From contig CBDEUK010000002.1 in the NCBI GenBank assembly GCA_965243205.1, positions 1,216,001-1,280,000 on the forward strand: a DNA stretch of 64,000 bases, given 5' to 3'. The first letter of the stretch is position 1, and every line of letters begins with the position of its first letter. The DNA comes from Gammaproteobacteria bacterium (GTDB lineage: Bacteria > Pseudomonadota > Gammaproteobacteria > Eutrophobiales > Eutrophobiaceae). A program made the position numbers and the translations under genes. Shown in pieces: positions 1,560-63,660 of this stretch. The notes beneath the pieces were generated by a model. The model saw only the letters and a program-made list of their open reading frames with translations. It made no database searches and was not told the DNA's origin.

Positions 1560-3080
1560 ATGCAAGAATTAACACCTGAAAATATAAAAACAAATTTATT
1601 AAGTGGTTTAACCGTTGCGTTAGCAATGGTACCTGAGGCTATTGCCTTTGCTTTAATCGCTCATGTATCACCTTTGACAGGACTCTATGCTGCTTTTTTA
1701 ATTTGCTTAATCACATCAGTTATCGGTGGAAGACCTGGTATGATTTCAGGTGCTGCGGGGGCATTAGCCGTGGTTATGGTGGCATTAGTTGTAGAACATG
1801 GAGTCGAATATTTATTCGCTGCGATTGTATTAATGGGTGTGTTTCAACTCATTTTTGCCGCTTGTCGGTTAGGAAAGTTTATTCGTATGGTACCCCACCC
1901 TGTCATGCTTGGGTTTGTGAATGGCTTAGCTATGGTCATTTTTCTAGCACAGTTTAATCATTTCAAAATAGAAAATGAAAATGGTATAAACCAATGGATG
2001 TCGGGTATGCCGCTTTATACCATGGCAATGTTAATAGCTATTACGATTGCTATTATTTATTTGCTACCCAAATTTACTAAAGCCATTCCATCAACCCTCG
2101 CTGCTATCTTAGTTGTTTCATTAGCTGTAATAGGTTTAGACATTGATACCAAAACCGTTGGCGACTTAGGTTCGATCGGTGGAGGCTTACCAACTTTTCA
2201 TCTTCCAGATGTTCCGTTTAATCTAGAAACCTTAAAAATTGTTTTGCCTTATTCATTGATACTCGCTGCTGTGGGATTAATCGAAACTTTATTAACCTTA
2301 AACTTGATCGATGATATGACTGACACGCGAGGAATGCCAAATACAGAGTCGATGGCACAAGGTATTGCGAATGTCGTCACAGGATTATTTGGTGGCATGG
2401 GCGGTTGTGCGATGATTGGTCAAAGTATGATTAATATTAACAACGGCGCCTTACATCGTTTATCAGGAATCGCTACCGCTGTATTTCTTTTATCATTTAT
2501 TTTATTCGCATCAACCTGGATTGAGATGATTCCATTAGCAGCATTAATTGGTGTGATGTTTGTTGTTGCAGAAAAAACATTTGAATGGGGAAGTTTTCGT
2601 TTATTCGGTCGCGTTCCTAAACCCGATATCGTTGTTGGTTTATTAGTCGCAATTATTACTGTGTTTGCAGACTTAGCGATTGCCGTGATCGTTGGTGTTA
2701 TCTTCTCAGCCTTAGTGTTTGCATGGGAACATGCCAAGCAAATCAATGTTAAATCATCAACTGATGGCAAAGGCTGGAAAAACTATGAACTGAATGGTTC
2801 TTTATTCTTTGCCTCAGTAACGGAGTTTCAAAGTTTATTCACTCCGAAAGAAGATCCAAACGATGTCGTCATTGATTTTCAAAATGCCAAGGTAATGGAT
2901 CACTCAGCGTTAGAAGCCATTGATAACTTAGCAGCAAAATATATTGAACTCGGTAAAAGTTTGCACCTAAAACATCTCAGTGCTGATTGTTTAGAATTAT
3001 TGGATAAAGCCAAAGGCATGATCGAAATAAATGTGTTAGAAGATCCTAAGTATCATATAGCGGATGATAAGTTAGGTTAA
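1560..3080 (+). CDS. SulP/SLC26-family anion transporter with C-terminal STAS domain
   Basis: LSGLTVALAMVPEAIAF, GGRPGMISGAAGA, GGCAMIGQS; STAS-like LNGSLFFAS..IDF...MDHSA. Confidence 0.92.
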   Translation: MQELTPENIKTNLLSGLTVALAMVPEAIAFALIAHVSPLTGLYAAFLICLITSVIGGRPGMISGAAGALAVVMVALVVEHGVEYLFAAIVLMGVFQLIFAACRLGKFIRMVPHPVMLGFVNGLAMVIFLAQFNHFKIENENGINQWMSGMPLYTMAMLIAITIAIIYLLPKFTKAIPSTLAAILVVSLAVIGLDIDTKTVGDLGSIGGGLPTFHLPDVPFNLETLKIVLPYSLILAAVGLIETLLTLNLIDDMTDTRGMPNTESMAQGIANVVTGLFGGMGGCAMIGQSMININNGALHRLSGIATAVFLLSFILFASTWIEMIPLAALIGVMFVVAEKTFEWGSFRLFGRVPKPDIVVGLLVAIITVFADLAIAVIVGVIFSALVFAWEHAKQINVKSSTDGKGWKNYELNGSLFFASVTEFQSLFTPKEDPNDVVIDFQNAKVMDHSALEAIDNLAAKYIELGKSLHLKHLSADCLELLDKAKGMIEINVLEDPKYHIADDKLG

Positions 3081-3130
3081 AATATCAATTGAATATAGAT
3101 TTCAATTATATACTTACTATAATATAACTA

Positions 3131-3228
3131 CATTTTTAAAACAGGAGGTTACAAAATGCCAAAACTAACTAATTACATTATACGTAACTTATTCCTTCTA
3201 ATATTCTCATATAACGCATTGTCATAGC
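3131..3228 (+). promoter_or_regulatory. Leader/attI-like module heading cassette array A (R core changed GTT>GTC)
   Basis: 48/65 nt identical, ungapped, to 60412-60476. Ends in tcaTATAA-cgcattG^TCATAGC. GTCATAGC is one mismatch from the reverse complement of GCTATAAC (3713) after the first cassette gene. Confidence 0.65.
3156..3227 (+). CDS. Putative 23-aa leader peptide MPKLTNYIIRNLFLLIFSYNALS spanning the attI-like site
   Basis: AGGAGGT SD at 3143-3149, ATG 3156, stop 6 nt before the first cassette ATG; homologous frame at 60437-60496. Confidence 0.5.
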   Translation: MPKLTNYIIRNLFLLIFSYNALS

Positions 3229-3233
3229 TAAAT

Positions 3234-3710
3234 ATGAGTGAATATTTTCATTACATTAATCATTCCAAAAAACAACGTTTTAGCATTGGTGAATTTGGAA
3301 ATTCGGATAAATTTTCTGGAATTGGATATGGTCTAAGCGCTAGAGCATTTGCACTTTTATTAACGGAATCAAATGACCATGATATTAAAATGAAAGATAC
3401 GTTGTTTGGAAGCTGGATTGGTGATGAAATTCAATGTATAGGTGATCATGGCAACATACAAGATAAATATTTTGGCTATGATGAAATCATATTTGAAATT
3501 GTGACCATGTTGATATCTGCTGGAGATTTAGAAGAAATTATTGAAGCATCAAAATTGGATAATGGGCTTTTTTCAAAACTTTGTGAATATGTATTTATGT
3601 CAAATGATAATGTCCTTGAAAACTATATTTGTAAAGCGCATGGTTTAACTTGGAAGAAAAAATATAAGGAGTTAACACCGAATTATATAAAAAATAATAA
3701 CGAGTATTAA
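3234..3710 (+). CDS. Hypothetical protein (cassette A1)
   Basis: 158-aa ORF between the attI-like site and an attC-like site; no family recognised. Confidence 0.7.
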   Translation: MSEYFHYINHSKKQRFSIGEFGNSDKFSGIGYGLSARAFALLLTESNDHDIKMKDTLFGSWIGDEIQCIGDHGNIQDKYFGYDEIIFEIVTMLISAGDLEEIIEASKLDNGLFSKLCEYVFMSNDNVLENYICKAHGLTWKKKYKELTPNYIKNNNEY

Positions 3711-3712
3711 AT

Positions 3713-3770
3713 GCTATAACTGTTTAATACAGTCGATTTTAGTATGATCAGCTGAATTTAAACTTTATAA
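3713..3770 (+). repeat. Degenerate attC site
   Basis: GCTATAAC-tgttt-AATACAGTCGA...GCTGAATT-taaac-TTTATAA; same layout as attC 60846-60903, with the R' G replaced by T. Confidence 0.65.
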
Positions 3771-3865
3771 CTATAAATACATATGGATTACTTATATCAA
3801 AGAGCTAATGTACCTAATGCAATATTATGTTCCAATAAATTGCGAAATTAGGCAGAAGAAACATC

Positions 3866-4216
3866 ATGAAAGATTTCACACTAGAACCAATTTCAGATAT
3901 TGAAGTGTTTTTAACTCAATTTTTTACAAACGGTATGTTTATTTTATACGCCTTATCAGTAATTATATTTTTAGTAGCTTGTTTTATTCTTATTTTCAAA
4001 AGCCAAGCTAATGGAAGATACTTAATGCTATATGGTCTTTTAATTTATATAGTATCTAGTATTATTTGGTTCTTAAAATATCCACCTAATAATATTACTG
4101 ATTATAATGAATCAGTTGTATTACCTCTGCCTATGTATATGTTTATGATTTCATTATCCATATTTGTATTTATTATAGGTTTTTTACGATTTGTACTTTG
4201 GGCAATAAGACGCTAG
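3866..4216 (+). CDS. Hypothetical membrane protein (cassette-like)
   Basis: 116 aa with three hydrophobic segments; preceded by ATTAGGC (R'-like). Confidence 0.65.
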   Translation: MKDFTLEPISDIEVFLTQFFTNGMFILYALSVIIFLVACFILIFKSQANGRYLMLYGLLIYIVSSIIWFLKYPPNNITDYNESVVLPLPMYMFMISLSIFVFIIGFLRFVLWAIRR

Positions 4217-4225
4217 TTATTCACA

Positions 4226-4657
4226 ATGTTGAAAATTGGATGTTCAATAATAAGTCTATGGGCCGTGTTAAATTTGTTAGCATCCCTAATTCTTGTGTTA
4301 ATTCCAGTGCTGGGTTTGGGCGAGTCTGCTCCAGCATTGTTAGAGTCTCTTTCCACTGCCACAATAAAAAATATAGACCCAAAAGTTTTATCTAATGCTA
4401 ATTCAATTGCAGTCTATGCAAATACACTGAATATTGCTGCTTCAATATCGATACTCTTTATTGTGTGGTTTGGTGTTTATAATAAAAAAAAGTGGTCGCT
4501 AGCTGCATTATTTTTAATATTAAGTTTAATGCTAAGCGCTGGTTTTTTTTCTGATTATGTATCTAAGCATGATCATATATTCATTAATATAGTATCTGGT
4601 ACAATAATATTTATTGGATTGCTATTTTCAATCTTAGGTATTTACAAACCAAAATGA
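4226..4657 (+). CDS. Hypothetical membrane protein (cassette)
   Basis: 143 aa, about four TM segments; flanked by GTTATTCA and TGAATAAC. Confidence 0.7.
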   Translation: MLKIGCSIISLWAVLNLLASLILVLIPVLGLGESAPALLESLSTATIKNIDPKVLSNANSIAVYANTLNIAASISILFIVWFGVYNKKKWSLAALFLILSLMLSAGFFSDYVSKHDHIFINIVSGTIIFIGLLFSILGIYKPK

Positions 4658-5586
4658 ATAACAATTATTCTATTCCAAAGTTAATATGGTGGTTTCAATT
4701 CAATCTCTATAGTAATAAGACAATATGTAATTTAAAATTTTTTTATTGTTTTTTGATTTTATGTACCTTAACTGGCTGTTCTGCTTTCAGACCATTAGAT
4801 AATGATTCTCCAGTTCGTGAAGATTTCAAGATCCTTCAAGAAGATAGCCGTATTTTATACAAGCCATCTGCTATCCAGAATGCTCGAACTTTAATCCAAT
4901 ATATTGACTCTTCAATTTCGGCTGTAGAACAAGTACATGGCGAAAAGTTTTCTAAACAAGTAATTATTCATGTTTGTGATACCGAAGAGTGTTTTCAACA
5001 ATATACTCATAATCATTCCACAATTGCAGCAGCTGTTAGCGAAAATGGTTTATTTTTGTCGCCTAGAGCATTTCGAGAAAACCAACAGCAGTACTTCTTA
5101 ACTCATGAACTATCACACCTTCATTTGTTTCAACAGATTTCTTTATTACGTACTTGGTATATCCCACAATGGTTTCATGAAGGACTCGCAACTATGGCTG
5201 CAGATGGTGGTGGCGGACATAAAGTAAGTAAAAAAGATGCCATTGAATACATTCAATCAGGAAAACATTTTATACCAATTCATTCTTCTGGCTTATTTGG
5301 TGAAGGAGGAGCATTTAGTAATCGATGGCCGTTAAACTATACTGCTCCAAACGATGATAAATTTCTGCAAAATATGAATTATCGGCAAGCATCGCTATTC
5401 TTAGAATATTTGTCTAAAGATAATCAGATTCAAAATGTTCTGAGAGACATTGAAAAAGGCGAAAGTTTTGAGCGCGCTTTTTTTAAAGCCTTTGATAAAA
5501 AACCAAATGAGGTATGGGATAAGTTTATACAACAATTAAACTCTAACAAGAACATTAAAAATCATTTAAAAAATGATGCAGGTTAG
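4654..5586 (+). CDS. Putative zinc metallopeptidase (gluzincin / peptidase MA-like) lipoprotein; true start uncertain
   Basis: HELSH (HExxH) plus PQWFHEGLA; lipobox-like LTGC; the first ~20 codons overlap an attC remnant. Confidence 0.7.
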   Translation: MNNNYSIPKLIWWFQFNLYSNKTICNLKFFYCFLILCTLTGCSAFRPLDNDSPVREDFKILQEDSRILYKPSAIQNARTLIQYIDSSISAVEQVHGEKFSKQVIIHVCDTEECFQQYTHNHSTIAAAVSENGLFLSPRAFRENQQQYFLTHELSHLHLFQQISLLRTWYIPQWFHEGLATMAADGGGGHKVSKKDAIEYIQSGKHFIPIHSSGLFGEGGAFSNRWPLNYTAPNDDKFLQNMNYRQASLFLEYLSKDNQIQNVLRDIEKGESFERAFFKAFDKKPNEVWDKFIQQLNSNKNIKNHLKNDAG

Positions 5587-5640
5587 ATTTATAAAATATT
5601 ACTTACATTTATATCGTAGCCTTAAGGAAATATTAAATAA

Positions 5641-6021
5641 ATGAACAAGATATTACTAATATTAATTTTAACTACATTGTCTAGTTGTGCTTCTATAAAC
5701 ACACCAAGTTCTTCTCTTATAGATAAAGTATCTGTTGTAACAGTTGGTGAAACTTCTGGTGTGCAAGAAGAGCATATTGTTTTCATTCCAGCAAATACTG
5801 AATTTCCTATCCAGTTTTCCCTAAAAGGTAATATTTTCAACAAAGATTTATCATCCACGGTAATGGCTAGTTTCAAAAAAGATCTCTATCTATATAAATA
5901 TTGGGCAAGTCTGGATGGTAAAAATTGGGTAAATTCACATCAGTTAATAGATGTTAAACCATCAGGAGGATTTGATAAATCAGGTGGTAAAGTCGAAGTT
6001 CAATTAGATTTAGCTCAATAA
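5641..6021 (+). CDS. Hypothetical lipoprotein
   Basis: MNKILLILILTTLSSC lipobox. Confidence 0.7.
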   Translation: MNKILLILILTTLSSCASINTPSSSLIDKVSVVTVGETSGVQEEHIVFIPANTEFPIQFSLKGNIFNKDLSSTVMASFKKDLYLYKYWASLDGKNWVNSHQLIDVKPSGGFDKSGGKVEVQLDLAQ

Positions 6022-6029
6022 ATGAAGCT

Positions 6030-6383
6030 ATGATGAGTATATTGCTAATATTTCTAATAGCATTTATTATTTTTAGTTCTTTTGTAATTGCGTCTTATCC
6101 TTTTTTAAAATGGTCAGGTGTAAAAACTAATCTATGGAGTAGATCTTTGAAGTTTGGTGCGGCTATTTCAGGAATTTGGCTCTTAACCCAAATCCCATTC
6201 AAAATTATTTTCGGCGGTTTTTTTGGACTAATTTTTGGCTTTTTAGCAACTTATTTTTACATCAAGGCTAAACTTGATTTAACATCAGGTAAAAATCTTA
6301 TAATTGTTTTTTTGTTACCAATTTTAGCGGGGATTATTGCAACTCCGTTATTAATAACAGTGTTTAAAAAATTTTCAACATAA
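6030..6383 (+). CDS. Hypothetical membrane protein (cassette-like)
   Basis: 117-aa hydrophobic ORF whose stop lies within an ACATAAC R'' box. Confidence 0.65.
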   Translation: MMSILLIFLIAFIIFSSFVIASYPFLKWSGVKTNLWSRSLKFGAAISGIWLLTQIPFKIIFGGFFGLIFGFLATYFYIKAKLDLTSGKNLIIVFLLPILAGIIATPLLITVFKKFST

Positions 6384-6401
6384 CCAGTCATTCCAGTCAA
6401 C
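6378..6401 (+). repeat. attC 5' half (truncated)
   Basis: ACATAAC-cagt-CATTCCAGTCAAC resembles the R''/L'' of 60846 and 62680; no 3' half seen. Confidence 0.6.
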
Positions 6402-6424
6402 TTCCTATGTCTACTTAATTTAAT

Positions 6425-6922
6425 ATGAATGATGAAATAATAGCATGGGACGGCAAGTCTACTGATGATATTAGTTCAGTGTATGAAAAGTATCATAGCA
6501 AACCTAACTTTATAGATAATATTCTCTCTCAAATACATGATGTATCTATCCAGAAAGGTGGTACATGGTTGTTGAAAAAATGGTTAGAGTCAGGAAATAA
6601 GCTTAAAGTTGAACATATAAAAATAATATATGATTCACTACATGTATTGGAGCATTGGGAATCTAAACTTCATGTACTACAAATTTTACAATATATGCCT
6701 ATAGATAGCGTTCAAAAAACCAAAGTAGAATCATTTCTTAGAATAACATTAACAGATGATAATAAATTTATAAGGGCTTGGTCTTATAATGGGTTTTATG
6801 AGCTAGCTTCTCAACATCCAGAATACATGGAAGAGGTTAAACAATTTTTCGAGATTGCGTTACAAGATGAAGCCGCTTCTGTAAAAGCTAGAATTCGGAA
6901 TATAATAAAAAAAGGTTTTTAG
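6425..6922 (+). CDS. Hypothetical helical (HEAT/ARM-like) protein
   Basis: 165 aa; NKFIRAWSYNGF and EAASVKARIRNI resemble helical-repeat proteins. Confidence 0.6.
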   Translation: MNDEIIAWDGKSTDDISSVYEKYHSKPNFIDNILSQIHDVSIQKGGTWLLKKWLESGNKLKVEHIKIIYDSLHVLEHWESKLHVLQILQYMPIDSVQKTKVESFLRITLTDDNKFIRAWSYNGFYELASQHPEYMEEVKQFFEIALQDEAASVKARIRNIIKKGF

Positions 6923-7037: not shown

Positions 7038-8816
7038 TTAATTAATAATTTGTTGTTTAATATCGACGATCATATCCAGCAACTCTTCTAGAGTATTATC
7101 ATCAATACCATGACTGGATAATACTGAAACAAAATGTTGCACTAAAATTTTCCAGTCTTGTTCATCTATCTGCATATCATTATGCACTTCATTCATCTTC
7201 CTGCCAGTATATTTGTAAGGCCCTCCACTCATATCGCATATGTAATCAACCAAGTATTTTTTTTCCATTCTTATGCTATCTATTCCTCTATTTTGCCAAT
7301 GTCTACCTAATTGAGGATCTGAGCGTAATTTAGCTAATAAATCATCAATGAACTGTGTGATTTTAGTAATCCCACCAATTTTAGAATAAAGCGAATTTTT
7401 TTCTGGCTTTGAAATATTTAAAGATTTTATTCTTGAACTTAACGTTGACGAATTCATTCCTAGAAGCTTGGCTGCTCCATTTTCACCTGAAACACGCCAT
7501 GCCGTTCTTTCTAATGCATTAATAATATTATTTCGTTCAATTTGTTTAAGAATGATATCTGGAATAATCGTTTGTTTGTTTGAGTGGCTGATTCCATTAA
7601 AGTCAGTGCTAATTTGTTTCAGTGCTTGTTGAGGTAAAGCAAGATCAATTCTTAAGTGACCGTCGGATAAAATCACAGCTCTCTCAATCACATTTTTTAA
7701 TTCACGAATATTGCCAGGCCAGTCATAGTCTTGAAGCATGTTCAATTGCTCTTCAGTAAAACTTCCTATTTGTTTATCAAACTCTGTTTTTGCTATTTCA
7801 ACAAAATACTGTGCAAGCGGAACAATATCATCTTTTCTTTTCCTAAGAGGTGGCACCGTAATTGGAAACACACTAAGTCGATAGTAAAGATCCTCACGAA
7901 AACTCCCTTGTTCCACTTCGTGTTCTAAGTCACGGTTAGTCGCAGCAATAATACGAACATTAACTTCACGCGTTACGTTTTCCCCTACACGTTCAAATGA
8001 TTTTTGTTGAATTGAACGAAGTAATTTACTTTGTAAATCAATTGGAATTTCGCCGACTTCATCTAAAAACAAGGTTCCATTATGCGCAAGTTCAAAACGT
8101 CCGATTCTATCTTGAACTGCACCTGAAAAAGCACCTTTAACATGTCCAAAAAATTCACTTTCAAATAGTTCAGAAGGGATGGATGCGCAATTAACCGTTA
8201 TTAACGGCGCTTCTTTTCGATTACTCTTTTCATGGATAAGCCGTGCTACCATCTCTTTACCAGAACCTGACTCTCCTACAATGAGTACAGATGCATCTGT
8301 ATTAGCAACGGATTTAATCCTTTCAACCATTTGTAATAATGCAGGACTAGCACCGACCATGTCTCCAACATCTCGAATCTGTAACTTTTCTTCCCTTAAA
8401 TAATTTCGCTCCATGACCAGTTTTGAATTTAATTTGTCCAGTTCCTTTAAAGCACTTTCTTTTTCTTTTACATTTTCATAATACTTAGACACATTAATAA
8501 TGGTCCAAAGAATATCAAAATCATTTTTATGTTTATTTATGACACGTGTGTAAGCCAATAATCTTGAGGTTATATCTTGGAAATTAAATTTAAGTTCGAT
8601 TTGTCCTTGATTTAAAGAGCGTTCGTTTTTTAAAAATAATTCTAATTTCTTTAACGGCTTGAAGTGTTCAGTCATATTAGAAGCCATTAATTGTTCTGAA
8701 TCTGCATTCAATTGCTCTATGAACATATGATTAGAATTTTTAATCACACCTTTGCTATCAGTCACACAAATCATAATCGGCAGTGAATTTATATCTATCG
8801 GCTGCATATCTTTCAT
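7038..8816 (-). CDS. Sigma54-dependent enhancer-binding protein: PAS-like / AAA+ / HTH / C-terminal truncated-hemoglobin domain
   Basis: GESGSGKE, ESEFFGHVKGAFSGA, GTLFLDEVGE, FREDLYYRL, WPGNIRELKN, GAAKLLGM; then SLYSKIGG...MSGGPYKYTGRKMNEVH (group I trHb pattern). Confidence 0.9.
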   Translation of the reverse strand: MKDMQPIDINSLPIMICVTDSKGVIKNSNHMFIEQLNADSEQLMASNMTEHFKPLKKLELFLKNERSLNQGQIELKFNFQDITSRLLAYTRVINKHKNDFDILWTIINVSKYYENVKEKESALKELDKLNSKLVMERNYLREEKLQIRDVGDMVGASPALLQMVERIKSVANTDASVLIVGESGSGKEMVARLIHEKSNRKEAPLITVNCASIPSELFESEFFGHVKGAFSGAVQDRIGRFELAHNGTLFLDEVGEIPIDLQSKLLRSIQQKSFERVGENVTREVNVRIIAATNRDLEHEVEQGSFREDLYYRLSVFPITVPPLRKRKDDIVPLAQYFVEIAKTEFDKQIGSFTEEQLNMLQDYDWPGNIRELKNVIERAVILSDGHLRIDLALPQQALKQISTDFNGISHSNKQTIIPDIILKQIERNNIINALERTAWRVSGENGAAKLLGMNSSTLSSRIKSLNISKPEKNSLYSKIGGITKITQFIDDLLAKLRSDPQLGRHWQNRGIDSIRMEKKYLVDYICDMSGGPYKYTGRKMNEVHNDMQIDEQDWKILVQHFVSVLSSHGIDDNTLEELLDMIVDIKQQIIN

Positions 8817-9069: not shown

Positions 9070-9555
9070 TTGGAGAAAGTAATTATGAAAAAAATTCAAA
9101 AATTTATTTTTTGTTTATTAGCGTTAGGTATTGTGAATGCCTACGCTCATGAAATGGGTTCAAATATAAAACCCATTGCATTAGGAGCTGATCAAACCAT
9201 TATTGATTTTGACAAAATAGTTTGGTCGCCGCTCGAAGTTGATGGCCTTGATAAAGGCGCTGAGATTGCGGTTATTCGTGGTGACTTAAGCAAAGACGGT
9301 AGTGAAGTTATCATAAAAACGCCTGCTGGCTATTATGTAAACATGCATTCCCATACCAGTGATGAAACCTATATTTGGCTTCATGGTGCTTATACACTGA
9401 TTAGCGAAAATGGTAAGAAACATAAATTCCCCAGTGGCAAAGGCTATATTAGTTTTCCTGGAAATGCTCCTAAACATGCTTTGACATGTGATGCAAAAGA
9501 CTACTGCTTGTTGTACGTAAAATGGTCTAGACCTTTCGACATCATATATGACTAA
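9070..9555 (+). CDS. Exported cupin-fold protein (DUF4437-like); likely start MKKIQ at ~9085
   Basis: Signal peptide ending VNAYA; cupin motif PAGY...HSHTSDE...PG..KH. Confidence 0.75.
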   Translation: MEKVIMKKIQKFIFCLLALGIVNAYAHEMGSNIKPIALGADQTIIDFDKIVWSPLEVDGLDKGAEIAVIRGDLSKDGSEVIIKTPAGYYVNMHSHTSDETYIWLHGAYTLISENGKKHKFPSGKGYISFPGNAPKHALTCDAKDYCLLYVKWSRPFDIIYD

Positions 9556-9578: not shown

Positions 9579-10016
9579 ATGAAAACTAAAACAATAACTT
9601 TAAATACACTAGCCTTAATGATGATGTTTACGAGTCCAAGTGCTTTTTCAAATGACTCTTTATACAGTCGGCTTGGGGGATATGACGCAGTTGCTGCAGT
9701 GGTTGATGATTTAATGAATCGTCTTGCAAACGATCAGCAAGTTGGTCGTGTATTAAAACATATCCCAGAGTCACGTTTTAATCATATCAGACAAATGATG
9801 GTAGATTTTGTATGTGAAGCGACTGGCGGACCTTGTAAATATATCGGTCAGACTATGGAAATAGCTCATCGTGGCATGGGATTAAATGAAAGTGATTGGA
9901 AATTAACCGTGAATCATTTACAACATACATTGAGTGAGTTTAATGTCCCTACAAATGAAAAAAATGAATTAATCAATATACTTGCTACGTTAAAACCTGC
10001 AATTGTTGATAGTTAA
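9579..10016 (+). CDS. Group I truncated hemoglobin with signal peptide
   Basis: SLYSRLGGYDAVAAVVDD, VCEATGGPCKYIG..MEIAHRGM (proximal His); N-terminal signal ending SAFS. Confidence 0.9.
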   Translation: MKTKTITLNTLALMMMFTSPSAFSNDSLYSRLGGYDAVAAVVDDLMNRLANDQQVGRVLKHIPESRFNHIRQMMVDFVCEATGGPCKYIGQTMEIAHRGMGLNESDWKLTVNHLQHTLSEFNVPTNEKNELINILATLKPAIVDS

Positions 10017-60324: not shown

Positions 60325-60353
60325 TTGACACTACTATTACCAACATATAGATT
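60325..60353 (+). promoter_or_regulatory. Candidate cassette promoter (Pc)
   Basis: TTGACA-N17-TAGATT pointing into array B. Confidence 0.6.
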
Positions 60354-60411
60354 TTAGATATTGAGGAATTAAACCCGTATAACAGAAACGCAAAAAAATC
60401 TTCTCAGAAAT

Positions 60412-60497
60412 CATTTGAAAAAAAGGAGGTTGCAAAACGCTCAAGTCAATGAATTCCATTATAAGGAATTCATTCCCGTATAATAGACTGTTATGAG
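60412..60497 (+). promoter_or_regulatory. Leader/attI-like module heading cassette array B
   Basis: Homologous to 3131-3195; simple site cccgTATAA-tagactG^TTATGAG; TTATGAGT is the reverse complement of ACTCATAA (60844) at the end of the first cassette. Confidence 0.7.
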
Positions 60498-60888
60498 TAA
60501 ATTTATAAATAATACAATATTAATTATCTTACTTCTCGTGAGTAATACTTTGTTCGCTGAAATAGAATCAGTTGATATATTCAATGGTGAATTTCAGCAT
60601 ATATTAAAAATTCAAGAAGAACCAAAAATTTCCAAATTCAATAAACTTTGGAAAACTAAGAAGGAAATGAAAGTCAAAATAAAAATAAATTGGGCACTAG
60701 GATACAGACTTTATTTAAGAGGAGACTCTGACTCAGGTCTTTGGCTATGCTATGACGGTTGGTTAATGCCATTGTCGGCAAAAACAAAGTCTGGCTTATA
60801 TAAGTTAGAATCTAACTCCAATTTTGAAGCTTTATTTAGCCCAACTCATAATAAACCATTCCAGCCGACCGCTTACACGGCCGGCTGA
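60493..60888 (+). CDS. Hypothetical exported protein (cassette B1), reads into its attC
   Basis: Signal peptide ending TLFA; C-terminal HNKPFQPTA is attC-encoded. Confidence 0.7.
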   Translation: MSKFINNTILIILLLVSNTLFAEIESVDIFNGEFQHILKIQEEPKISKFNKLWKTKKEMKVKIKINWALGYRLYLRGDSDSGLWLCYDGWLMPLSAKTKSGLYKLESNSNFEALFSPTHNKPFQPTAYTAG

Positions 60889-60903
60889 ATTCAACCGTTA
60901 GGT
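60846..60903 (+). repeat. attC site B1
   Basis: TCATAAT-aaacc-ATTCCAGCCG...CGGCTGAATT-caacc-GTTAGGT. Confidence 0.85.
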
Positions 60904-62679: not shown

Positions 62680-62711
62680 GCCTAAAAACTCATTCCAGCG
62701 AACCGCTAGCT
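62680..62711 (+). repeat. Collapsed attC site B4
   Basis: GCCTAAA-aact-CATTCCAGCGAACC-GCTAGCT; L' half missing. Confidence 0.7.
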
Positions 62712-62715
62712 AGCA

Positions 62716-63609
62716 ATGAAAATTTTTCAAAGAAATCACATCAAAAAAATCACGATTATTTTACTTGTATTATTTGCATTAATTTTTAGCACATCCTGGC
62801 ATGTAGGAGGGAAACTTGTTGCTTCTACTAATCATCCTGTTTCGCCTCCAATAGATCTTAATATTTCTAAGTTTTCTATCGAAAGCGAATCTGGAGCTCA
62901 TATCGCTGGTTGGCATATCCCTCTAGATGATCCTAAAGGTATAGTTATGTTGTTACATGGGATTAGAAGCTCACGTTCTGCAATGATCGAGCGCGCACGT
63001 TTATTTAATAGAAACGGCTTTGCGGTAATGATGATCGACTTTCAAGCTCATGGTGAAAGCCTAGGTGAAACCATTACAATTGGTCATCTTGAGAAACATG
63101 ATGTTGTTGCTTTAGTTAATTATACTCGGAAATTATATGCATCTTTACCAATCGTCACTTTAGGAGTTTCAATGGGAGGAGCTGCAGCCTTACTCGCATC
63201 ACCGCTAAATGTAGACGCACTAATTCTCGAATCGGTATACCCTGACATACGAACAGCGGTAAAAAACAGAGTTCGAAAACGCGTTGGGCCACTCTATTGG
63301 ATACCATCTGAATTACTTCTGGCCCAACTGGGCCCCAGACTAGGAATAGAACTACACGAGCTACGACCAATTGATTACATAGAGAAAGTTAATTGCCCTG
63401 TATTCATAATTTCAGGCCTTGAAGATCAACATACTACTATCGAAGACACAAATACTATTTTCGAAAATGCCGCTCAACCAAAAGAATTATGGTTGATAGA
63501 GAATGCAGGGCATATTGATTTATATAACGCTGCCAAAGAGGAATATGAATCTAAAATAATCAATTTTCTCAATGAACATATTGAAGTACTAAATCAAGAT
63601 ACCAGCTAA
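62716..63609 (+). CDS. Alpha/beta hydrolase (cassette B5)
   Basis: LLHGIR, DFQAHGES, GVSMGG, GLEDQH, AGHIDL. Confidence 0.9.
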   Translation: MKIFQRNHIKKITIILLVLFALIFSTSWHVGGKLVASTNHPVSPPIDLNISKFSIESESGAHIAGWHIPLDDPKGIVMLLHGIRSSRSAMIERARLFNRNGFAVMMIDFQAHGESLGETITIGHLEKHDVVALVNYTRKLYASLPIVTLGVSMGGAAALLASPLNVDALILESVYPDIRTAVKNRVRKRVGPLYWIPSELLLAQLGPRLGIELHELRPIDYIEKVNCPVFIISGLEDQHTTIEDTNTIFENAAQPKELWLIENAGHIDLYNAAKEEYESKIINFLNEHIEVLNQDTS

Positions 63610-63660
63610 CAAATCATCCTAGCCGATCGCTAACGTGACAAACTAGATTCGAATTTTATA
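63604..63660 (+). repeat. Degenerate attC site B5
   Basis: AGCTAAC-aaatc-ATCCTAGCCGATCGC resembles the B1 5' half; 3' half eroded. Confidence 0.55.

Follow-up and report, generated by a model that had tools for sequence, protein, structure and literature searches.

Several short open reading frames (ORFs), ORF-11, ORF-17 and ORF-18, have been described in the attI1 site of class 1 integrons (Hanau-Bercot et al. 2002, as given in the available part of PMC8876359). According to the same part of that source, ORF-11 has its own Shine–Dalgarno (SD) sequence and ATG, reaches the crossover point with its stop in or near the core, and helps cassettes that have no initiation region; changes to its amino acids have only a slight effect. 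A comparable element is described here from a 64-kilobase (kb) stretch of DNA of Gammaproteobacteria bacterium, hereafter the window. It is a leader ORF of 23 codons, lying in a short sequence module (head A) directly in front of array A, a row of small genes with no adjacent integrase gene. The chances are about even that head A and its counterparts elsewhere in the genome would act as ORF-11-like ribosome-delivery modules on integrase-less arrays.

Clusters of attC sites lacking an integron integrase are known as CALINs, and single attC sites lacking one as SALINs (Cury et al. 2016, PMC4889954; Loot et al., preprint 10.1101/2022.09.11.507474; available parts of both). In the available text of PMC4889954, CALINs are defined without a head, and attI, sought only near the integrase gene intI, is unknown for most integrons. 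Cassettes are also inserted at genomic secondary sites, termed attG, for which the part of 10.1101/2022.09.11.507474 at hand gives a GWT consensus only. Leader-peptide translational attenuation is a further relevant system, described for the resistance genes erm and cat and for aac/aad cassettes behind attI1 (PMC8876359, available part). In the literature found, part of it available as partial text, entry-site translation signals had previously been described only for attI1 of clinical class 1 integrons. A narrow literature search brought up no account of leader ORFs embedded in attI for arrays that are chromosomal or lack an integrase. The issue that these heads address is how promoter-less, SD-less cassettes are expressed in chromosomal arrays and CALINs.

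The leader ORF of head A

Positions are numbered along the window, which covers 1216001-1280000 of contig C2 of the source genome (G000; 2.79 megabases (Mb), 36.7% G+C); sites elsewhere in that genome are given with their contig, C1 or C2. In head A an AGGAGGT box is followed, after 6 nucleotides (nt), by the ATG of the leader ORF (3156), whose translation is MPKLTNYIIRNLFLLIFSYNALS. The ORF shares its frame with the next gene, and 6 nt separate its TAG from the ATG of that gene at 3234, before which no purine-rich SD sequence is present. An earlier reading of the DNA from its letters and open reading frames (the sequence-only reading) had noted a perfect AGGAGGT and an ORF ending 6 nt before an SD-less ATG, and the coordinates (3143-3149, 3156-3227 and 3234; Table 1) confirm this. 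The product of the 3234 gene has a single homologue among 5.8 billion clustered proteins. This homologue is 46% identical and shares the N-terminus MSEYFHYINH, and the identity of these first ten residues confirms the start at ATG 3234. Among the 400 scored genomes of the class, only the source genome was matched by this protein.

Heads A and B, the latter a second copy of the module at the other end of the window, each separate a housekeeping gene (encoding a SulP transporter at A and a PHP-domain protein at B) from small orphan genes on the same strand, and the head module is ~95-170 nt long. Neither a terminator-like nor a plus-strand promoter-like site was found upstream of the leader ORF within 2900-3900. 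At the presumed crossover of head A, GTC replaces GTT, and the exact cassette boundary is uncertain. A reading of the TCATTCC core as a relic of an attC left half was dropped as uninformative, the word AA.T.ATTCC being found 102 times in the genome.

A homologous head at array B

The similarity between heads A and B exceeds chance, and head B is a true homologue. Their best local alignment has 48 of 65 nt identical and a score of 45, against 17.9 +/- 2.6 for dinucleotide shuffles, none of 2000 of which reached 45; with nhmmer, A and B are each other's best non-self match in the 2.79-Mb genome (E values of 0.0024 and 0.39). The best-kept block, AAAA.AGGAGGTT.CAAAA, is identical at 18 of 20 positions and the remainder at ~70%. 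A single 12-nt indel, in frame, separates the copies, and the five synonymous codon pairs listed in the sequence-only reading (K, R, N, N and L) are all present, together with a TAG/TGA pair. The frame of head B reads TLKSMNSIIRNSF and then PYNRLL up to the stop, as that reading had it, though the ACG that stands in place of a start codon went unmentioned; read from this ACG, the frame gives TLKSMNSIIRNSFPYNRLL. Its TGA (60494-60496) overlaps the ATG of the first cassette as ATGA, inside GTTATGA. The only in-frame ATG of head B (60449) lies 18 nt from the SD box, inside a 10-base-pair (bp) hairpin. Most likely copy A is intact and copy B, having no canonical start, is decaying or would initiate weakly.

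The last 24 nt of head B recur with two changes at locus C (C2:1615347-1615370), as TCATTCCCGTATAAYAGACTRTTA, and the comparison of B with C has a z score (z) of 9.0. At locus C (context C2:1615311-1616015) a gene of 145 amino acids (aa) is followed by one Sel1-repeat cassette, whose attC is truncated. On the left side of the 24 nt, B and C show no relationship, and on the right they have different cassettes; by eye their common core reads GTATAAY-AGACT-R/TTA, the slash here and below marking the junction. A simple site of attI has two boxes in inverse orientation and G/TTRRRY at the crossover. The boxes of the presumed simple sites, also assigned by eye, are GTATAAT-AGACT-G/TTATGA in B, GTATAAC-AGACT-A/TTAGGT in C and ATATAAC-GCATT-G/TCATAG in A, where GTT is not kept; crossover and junction positions and these box assignments are inferred from sequence.

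In the sequence-only reading the leader was described as conserved. The homology of A and B bears this out in part, but there are two copies only, and searches for more gave no further full copy. The pattern TCATTCCCGTATAAYAGACTRTTA, allowing up to 3 mismatches, was found at 2 places in 126 genomes of the family, both in the source genome (head B and locus C). BLAST of both heads in the genus (2 genomes) gave chance-level matches only. A pattern common to A and B had 4 matches in a species-representative collection, all in unrelated taxa and contexts, and one common to B and C had 2 matches in metagenomes, in GC-rich unrelated contexts. The stretch is present in 4 sequencing runs, all from a single study and a single sample that may be the source, and no RNA run was listed as containing it; from 4 further runs that bear this species label, compared at 80% likeness, came fragments of 31-50 nt that leave the head uncovered and are uninformative either way. 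The segment 6984-7025, where array A has its far end, was considered as another copy of the module and rejected, as it scored 29 against 27-28 for unrelated windows and was left unaligned by MAFFT. This segment resembles the middle of head A in the pattern TTACAAAA.GC..AAG.C.CTAATTACA .. ACTTTATTCC.

Recurrence of the design and SD enrichment

Two further heads, E (C2:57017-57112) and F (C2:265845, minus strand), stand in front of two more attC arrays that lack an integrase. They are homologous to each other (z 27) and not to A or B (z -1.4 to 1.4), and because this unrelated pair repeats the design, the idea of a device gains independent support. In E and F the AGGAGGTT box takes the form AAGGAGGTT, and 8 nt later stands ATG (E) or ATT (F). 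The ORF of head E has 26 codons, and its TAA, 19 nt past G/TTATGT, overlaps the SD-less ATG of the first cassette by 8 nt (TATGAGTAA); the frame of head F ends in TAG at the G of G/TTAGCT. In all four heads (A, B, E and F) the SD box lies 67-79 nt to the left of the junction, and a start or near-cognate codon follows it, at 6 nt in A and B and at 8 nt in E and F. In these heads the ORF frame is free of stops from the start position to the junction, while the other frames have 1 to 5 stops each; the exception is head F, where a second frame is open almost to the junction. Head I (C2:386426) has AGGAGGA, followed after 8 nt (9 from its GGAGG core) by the ATG of a 26-codon ORF. Homology of head A with heads G and I was considered and rejected, as the short alike blocks would imply further in-frame indels and z is 1.8 and 0.4.

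AGGAGG occurs 378 times in the genome on both strands, which gives an expectation of 0.013 per 190-nt head. Since E and F had first been noticed through an AGGAGGT scan, the enrichment was recounted on loci defined by attC. The hexamer is found in the heads of 4 of 10 such dispersed loci (B, E, F and I), as well as in A. The binomial P is 5e-6, or 1.7e-4 with homologous pairs counted once.

Table 1. Features of heads A and B and of their arrays, in window coordinates.
Feature	Position	Strand	Remark
Spacer of head A, from SulP stop codon (3078-3080) to SD box	3081-3142	+	only patchy similarity to head B
SD box AGGAGGT, head A	3143-3149	+	within best-kept A/B block
Leader ORF, 23 codons	3156-3227	+	ATG 3156, TAG 3225-3227; frame that of next gene
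Junction-proximal block, head A (CATATAAC-GCATT-GTCATAG)	3209-3227	+	diverged counterpart of B/C core by alignment
First gene of array A, 158 aa, no Pfam family	3234-3710	+	SD-less start
Array A, seven same-strand small ORFs	3234-6922	+	decayed attC remnants only
Promoter-like site TTGACA-17-TAGATT, just past PHP-domain gene stop (60316)	60325-60353	+	10/12 consensus matches only
Direct repeat CCCGTATAACAGA, upstream copy	60374-60386	+	second copy 60475-60487
SD box AGGAGGT, head B	60424-60430	+	no canonical start codon 4-12 nt downstream
Frame homologous to leader ORF, head B	60437-60496	+	ACG for ATG; internal ATG 60449
Perfect 10-bp inverted repeat, 7-nt loop, holding internal ATG	60448-60474	+	RNA -10.7 kcal/mol, z -4.6
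24-nt core TCATTCCCGTATAATAGACTG/TTA, common to locus C; putative recombination core	60470-60493	+	rightward sequences diverge
First cassette gene of array B, 131 aa	60493-60888	+	SD-less start; N-terminus signal-peptide-like by eye
Complete attC, first cassette of array B	60849-60903	+	type that of attC of the genome's integron, E 1e-16

A possible mechanism

As an ORF-11-like ribosome-delivery module, the head would work on transcripts that enter from the upstream gene and, at array B, perhaps also from the promoter-like site. The strong SD sequence would recruit ribosomes onto the short ORF, and these would translate the frame through the junction-proximal core and terminate either 6 nt ahead of the first cassette's SD-less start (A) or over that start (B and E). 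The first cassette gene might then be translated by termination-reinitiation, by the melting of local structure, or by both; the opening by the translating ribosome of predicted hairpins that cover the AUG region of the cassette is a weak detail of this scheme. What would matter in such a device is the SD sequence, the start, the open frame and the place of the stop, and not the amino-acid sequence. Translation of the ORF, its coupling to the first gene and any recombination function of the core are inferred. If the scheme holds, integrase-less arrays would be expression platforms with a ribosome-delivery device of their own rather than silent debris, and a ribosome-delivery head would have evolved at least twice in one genome.

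Comparison with known systems

The likeness to ORF-11 is one of geometry and is drawn from the available part of the source. In both cases a short ORF, here with its own SD sequence and ATG in heads A and E, lies at the point of cassette entry, presumed in the heads, where on crossover positions read from sequence it may stop in or near a 7-bp core, and the first cassette has no initiation region of its own and starts within a few bases of the stop (A, B and E). In contrast to ORF-11, heads A and B have no adjacent integrase gene, the ORF has 23 codons instead of 11, and of the two homologous copies one lacks the start codon. The stop of head A also lies to the left of, or at, the presumed boundary and is not supplied by the cassette core.

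Arrays A and B resemble CALINs or SALINs, as do at least eight other loci, in holding attC sites or cassettes far from intI. Unlike CALINs, as the available text defines them, they have recognisable and partly homologous heads, two of which (G and H) carry a simple site close to that of attI. The heads also share with attG sites, in the part of the preprint at hand, the presence of cassettes outside an integron and beside host genes whose transcription could express them. They differ from attG in that between 24 nt (B/C) and ~100 nt (A/B and E/F) are conserved to the left of the junction, which points to specific sites, inherited or duplicated, rather than to random secondary ones. With leader-peptide attenuation they have in common a short upstream ORF and predicted hairpins that touch the downstream start region. 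They differ from it in having no conserved alternative pairings, known stalling motif or inducer, and the structures of A and B are non-homologous.

The arrays and the integron of the genome

The sole intI of the genome (C2:1953335-1954276; TIGR02249, 503 bits; 53% identical to IntI1) belongs to a complete integron with attI and at least seven attC sites. It lies ~675 kb from array B, and the window itself contains no intI. Sites of the attC type are found far from intI at at least eight further loci of the genome. The search for attC used a profile made from 7 attC of the genome's integron. In region-limited searches, array B was found to hold truncated attC sites at 62687-62710 (E 6.4e-4) and 63607-63644 (E 3.2e-6) beside its complete one, and array A to hold a half-site at 6381-6401 (E 0.0023) and a remnant at 3745-3766 (E 0.98). 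By the CALIN definition, which asks for two or more attC sites with no nearby intI, array B is a CALIN and array A weakly so. In the only other genome of the genus (G001), whose PHP protein has 57% amino-acid identity, the PHP gene directly adjoins the genes found beyond array B, so that head and array B are an insertion relative to that genome.

The site had been called attI-like in the sequence-only reading. This designation rests on position and anatomy, and significant similarity to the attI beside intI was not found for either head: the z scores are -1.0 for A and -1.4 for B, with 271 and 299 of 300 shuffles as good. Readings of the heads as XerCD/dif-like sites or Tn7-end-like sequences, made by eye only, were dropped; the arrays are without matching recombinase or transposase genes.

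Heads G (C1:268933-268948) and H (C1:206807-206822), neither of which contains AGGAGG, have a simple site one change away from that of the attI next to intI, TGTCTAATTATAG/TTA in place of the TGTCTAGTTATAG/TTA found beside intI (C2:1954416-1954431), and their similarity to the intI-adjacent head has a z of 4.7 (G) and 6.7 (H). In relatives the same type of attI is found beside intI and also away from it. With 1 mismatch allowed, the simple-site pattern is found in 11 of 126 genomes, the source genome included, which is about the rate of a reversed-pattern control. Thirteen simple-site places were examined, and a place was accepted, by eye, only if it shared the flank TTAGGGTGTCTA or had intI adjacent (L055, L061, L062, L067 and L057, plus L071, L074 and L075). 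G, H and G001 (L057/L074) also have a palindrome, GTTATAAC, at a distance of 25-30 nt on the left side of the simple site.

Head H and a head of G001 (contig C35, L067) stand behind orthologous genes, whose products end in ..HLCDDM and ..HICDEM, and have different first cassettes. These encode a DUF4062 protein (H) and an AAA_15/OLD-TOPRIM protein (G001), both of defence-like kinds, and the comparison is an indirect hint, from a head type other than that of A and B, that cassettes may be exchanged at a head with no integrase next to it. Also in G001, ~200 nt spanning an intI-attI junction on contig C7 (L057), with the beginning of intI among them, occur again on contig C4 (L074); contig C4 gave no integrase match, which suggests that orphan heads may arise by duplication or by loss of intI. 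The simple sites of G and H, with the orthologous head that bears a different cassette, offer a testable case for the persistence and turnover of attI-type sites without an adjacent integrase.

A wider arrangement, a distributed integron, may be proposed tentatively, although it must be considered rather unlikely. One or a few integrases would serve many integrase-less heads of attI type behind housekeeping genes, several of these heads having an expression module of their own, composed of a promoter-like site, a strong SD sequence and a short leader ORF that ends on the start of the first cassette. If this were so, the choice between ATG and a near-cognate codon (ACG or ATT) would set the strength of first-cassette translation at each head.

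Codon pattern and predicted RNA structure of the leader

The frames of A and B differ at 22 of 60 aligned nt. Counted by codon position 1/2/3 they number 5/9/8, and third positions are thus not in excess. Of the 20 codons, the stop counted, 11 give the same residue, 6 of these being synonymous pairs, and 9 are non-synonymous; in the other two frames the identical residues number 5 and 7. Shuffling of alignment columns gave P values of 0.03-0.04 for identity and ~0.05 for the synonymous count, uncorrected for the three frames, and a null of random mutation gave 0.008 and 0.010, uncorrected for the choice of frame. Between E and F, 11 of 18 residues are identical, 3 through synonymous codons (P 0.08 and 0.19), against 8 and 8 in the other frames. 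The peptides of heads E, G and I are unrelated to that of head A, and none of the four matches a Pfam or NCBIfam family. As the 24 nt that encode SFPYNRLL recur at locus C, the C-terminal third of the 'peptide' is the DNA core at the cassette boundary. The codon signal in A and B is a weak sign that the frame was kept, rather than of a conserved peptide, and part of it falls in the DNA core common to C. The sequence-only reading had raised the possibility of selection at the level of the peptide; with uncorrected P values of 0.03-0.05 for A/B and 0.08 for E/F, no excess of third-position differences and the loss of the start in B, it is weakly supported. The slight effect of amino-acid changes in ORF-11 fits this lack of peptide conservation.

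In both A and B the predicted hairpins pair the AUG region of the first cassette with the interior of the leader ORF, through partners that are non-homologous. The hairpin of B (60439-60498) has a predicted energy of -16.6 kcal/mol (z -4.2), and 0 of 200 shuffles were as good. The inverted repeat of B has a counterpart in A with 7 of 10 pairs kept and one compensatory change from C-G to A-T, as read from the alignment, and an energy of 0 kcal/mol. A conserved 10-bp hairpin was accordingly discarded, being strong in B and energetically absent in A. The repeat could be a protein-binding site or a structure specific to B. It contains two GAATTC words. Pairing of the SD box with a downstream CCUUCU in A was also discarded, since this word lies in the 12-nt insert specific to A and is not common to the copies. 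In Rfam searches nothing in the window reached the gathering score; around A there was nothing at E <= 1, and around B one sub-threshold antisense match (21.5 bits against 47).

Weighing the explanations

The ribosome-delivery device put forward in the sequence-only reading draws its support from the geometry, from the recurrence in E and F and from the SD enrichment. Several observations weigh against it. The evidence for the head comes from one genome and two full copies, A and B, and one member of each homologous pair has lost its canonical start: in B an ACG stands 6 nt past the SD box, at the position of the ATG in head A, and in F there is ATT, so two of the four paired SD-bearing heads cannot initiate normally. 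AGGAGGT is itself an unreliable mark of translation starts in this genome, because only 11 of its 132 sites (both strands) precede a start with an ORF of at least 50 codons; 85 of the 132 have no start at 4-10 nt. The head beside intI has neither AGGAGG nor an SD-led ORF. The geometry is not uniform, as 68 nt lie between the end of head I's ORF and its first cassette ATG and the ORF of head G overruns the cassette ATG by ~40 nt, and at locus C the SFPYNRLL frame is stop-free and fused in frame to the cassette gene, the SD box and the remainder of the ORF being absent. As for structure, the predicted hairpin of A (3200-3246; -8.2 kcal/mol, z -1.7, 9 of 200 shuffles as good) is marginal, and the folds of E, F and G are no better than shuffles (z 0.06, 0.57 and -0.83). 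The main rival explanation, which is on the unlikely side, is that the frame is incidental. The module would then have been kept as DNA, made up of a recombination or protein-binding core, a direct repeat and a promoter, and the SD-like box would act without translation of an ORF, for example as a ribosome standby site or a transcript-stabilising site, or would be a relic. The best-kept 3' codons, those for SFPYNRLL, are the 24-nt core that locus C has without an SD box or ORF start; CCCGTATAAYAGA has a second occurrence in B, ~100 nt upstream and not within the frame; B and F have lost the ATG but retain the SD box; the differences fall 5/9/8 by codon position; and SD sequences in 5' untranslated regions have been proposed to stabilise transcripts (PMC8876359, available part). 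An incidental frame sits poorly, on the other hand, with the ideal and, within each of the two pairs, identical spacing of the start or near-cognate codon, with a frame open to the junction in all four heads, with stops that in A, B and E fall at the cassette start or overlap it, and with the ORF frame being the richest in identical residues (11 against 5 and 7 for A/B, and 11 against 8 and 8 for E/F).

The remaining explanations give the leader another role or none. It is improbable that the leader ORF is a translational attenuator, in which stalled or passing ribosomes would determine if the first cassette's start is hidden in a hairpin, so that expression would be regulated and not constitutive. 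The strong hairpin of B and the weaker one of A are predicted to pair with the cassette AUG region, and attenuation of this kind has been described for cassettes at attI1 (PMC8876359, available part), but the pairing partners are non-homologous, no alternative pairing of an anti-terminator kind was found, the folds of E, F and G are not significant, no Rfam family is matched, and the orphan nature of the cassette genes suggests no inducer. Quite improbable, too, is a functional peptide under purifying selection, such as a small hydrophobic peptide or a nascent-chain regulator. The 11 of 20 shared residues with their 6 synonymous pairs, the P values of 0.03-0.05 (shuffling) and 0.008-0.010 (random mutation), the motifs IIRN and YN.L common to A and B, and the in-frame indel would fit such a peptide. 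However, no correction for three frames, or for the frame having been chosen in the sequence-only reading, is included in these P values, and third positions show no excess; B has lost the start, the DNA core common to locus C accounts for the YN.L codons, the peptides of E, G and I are unrelated, no family is matched, and in the sets searched no copy of the leader was found outside the genome. That the module has no function, A and B being decaying relics of one ancestral sequence such as the 5' end of an old cassette or gene, is very improbable. The decayed attC sites of array A, the lost ATG of B and the count of only two full copies agree with decay, whereas the design recurs in the unrelated heads E and F, the SD enrichment at heads is strong, and the SD block is the best-kept part of A and B (18 of 20, against ~70% elsewhere).

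Neighbouring genes and minor observations

The first genes behind A, B, E and I start with ATGAGT and that behind F with ATGAGA; among relatives, the corresponding starts are ATGAGC at L057 and ATGAGT at L062. At locus C, AAGAGT is found where other heads show ATGAGT. Of 8 first genes that follow integrase-less heads, 5 have an ATGAG start, whereas the share among 940 SD-supported ORF starts of the genome is 9.3% (binomial 3e-4, post hoc). One attC site (C2:763204-763256, minus strand) lies ~70 nt past a tRNA-like gene identified by eye, and the sequence ..CCAATTATAG/TTTCC, placed directly at the 3' end of the tRNA, resembles the attI simple site. Beyond array A, a gene on the minus strand (7038-8816) encodes a sigma-54 activator that has a PAS domain at its N-terminus and, at its C-terminus, a bacterial-globin domain (PF01152, residues 475-591). 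The gene is divergent from a cupin-like gene and a 145-aa ORF, both on the plus strand (9070-9555 and 9579-10016).

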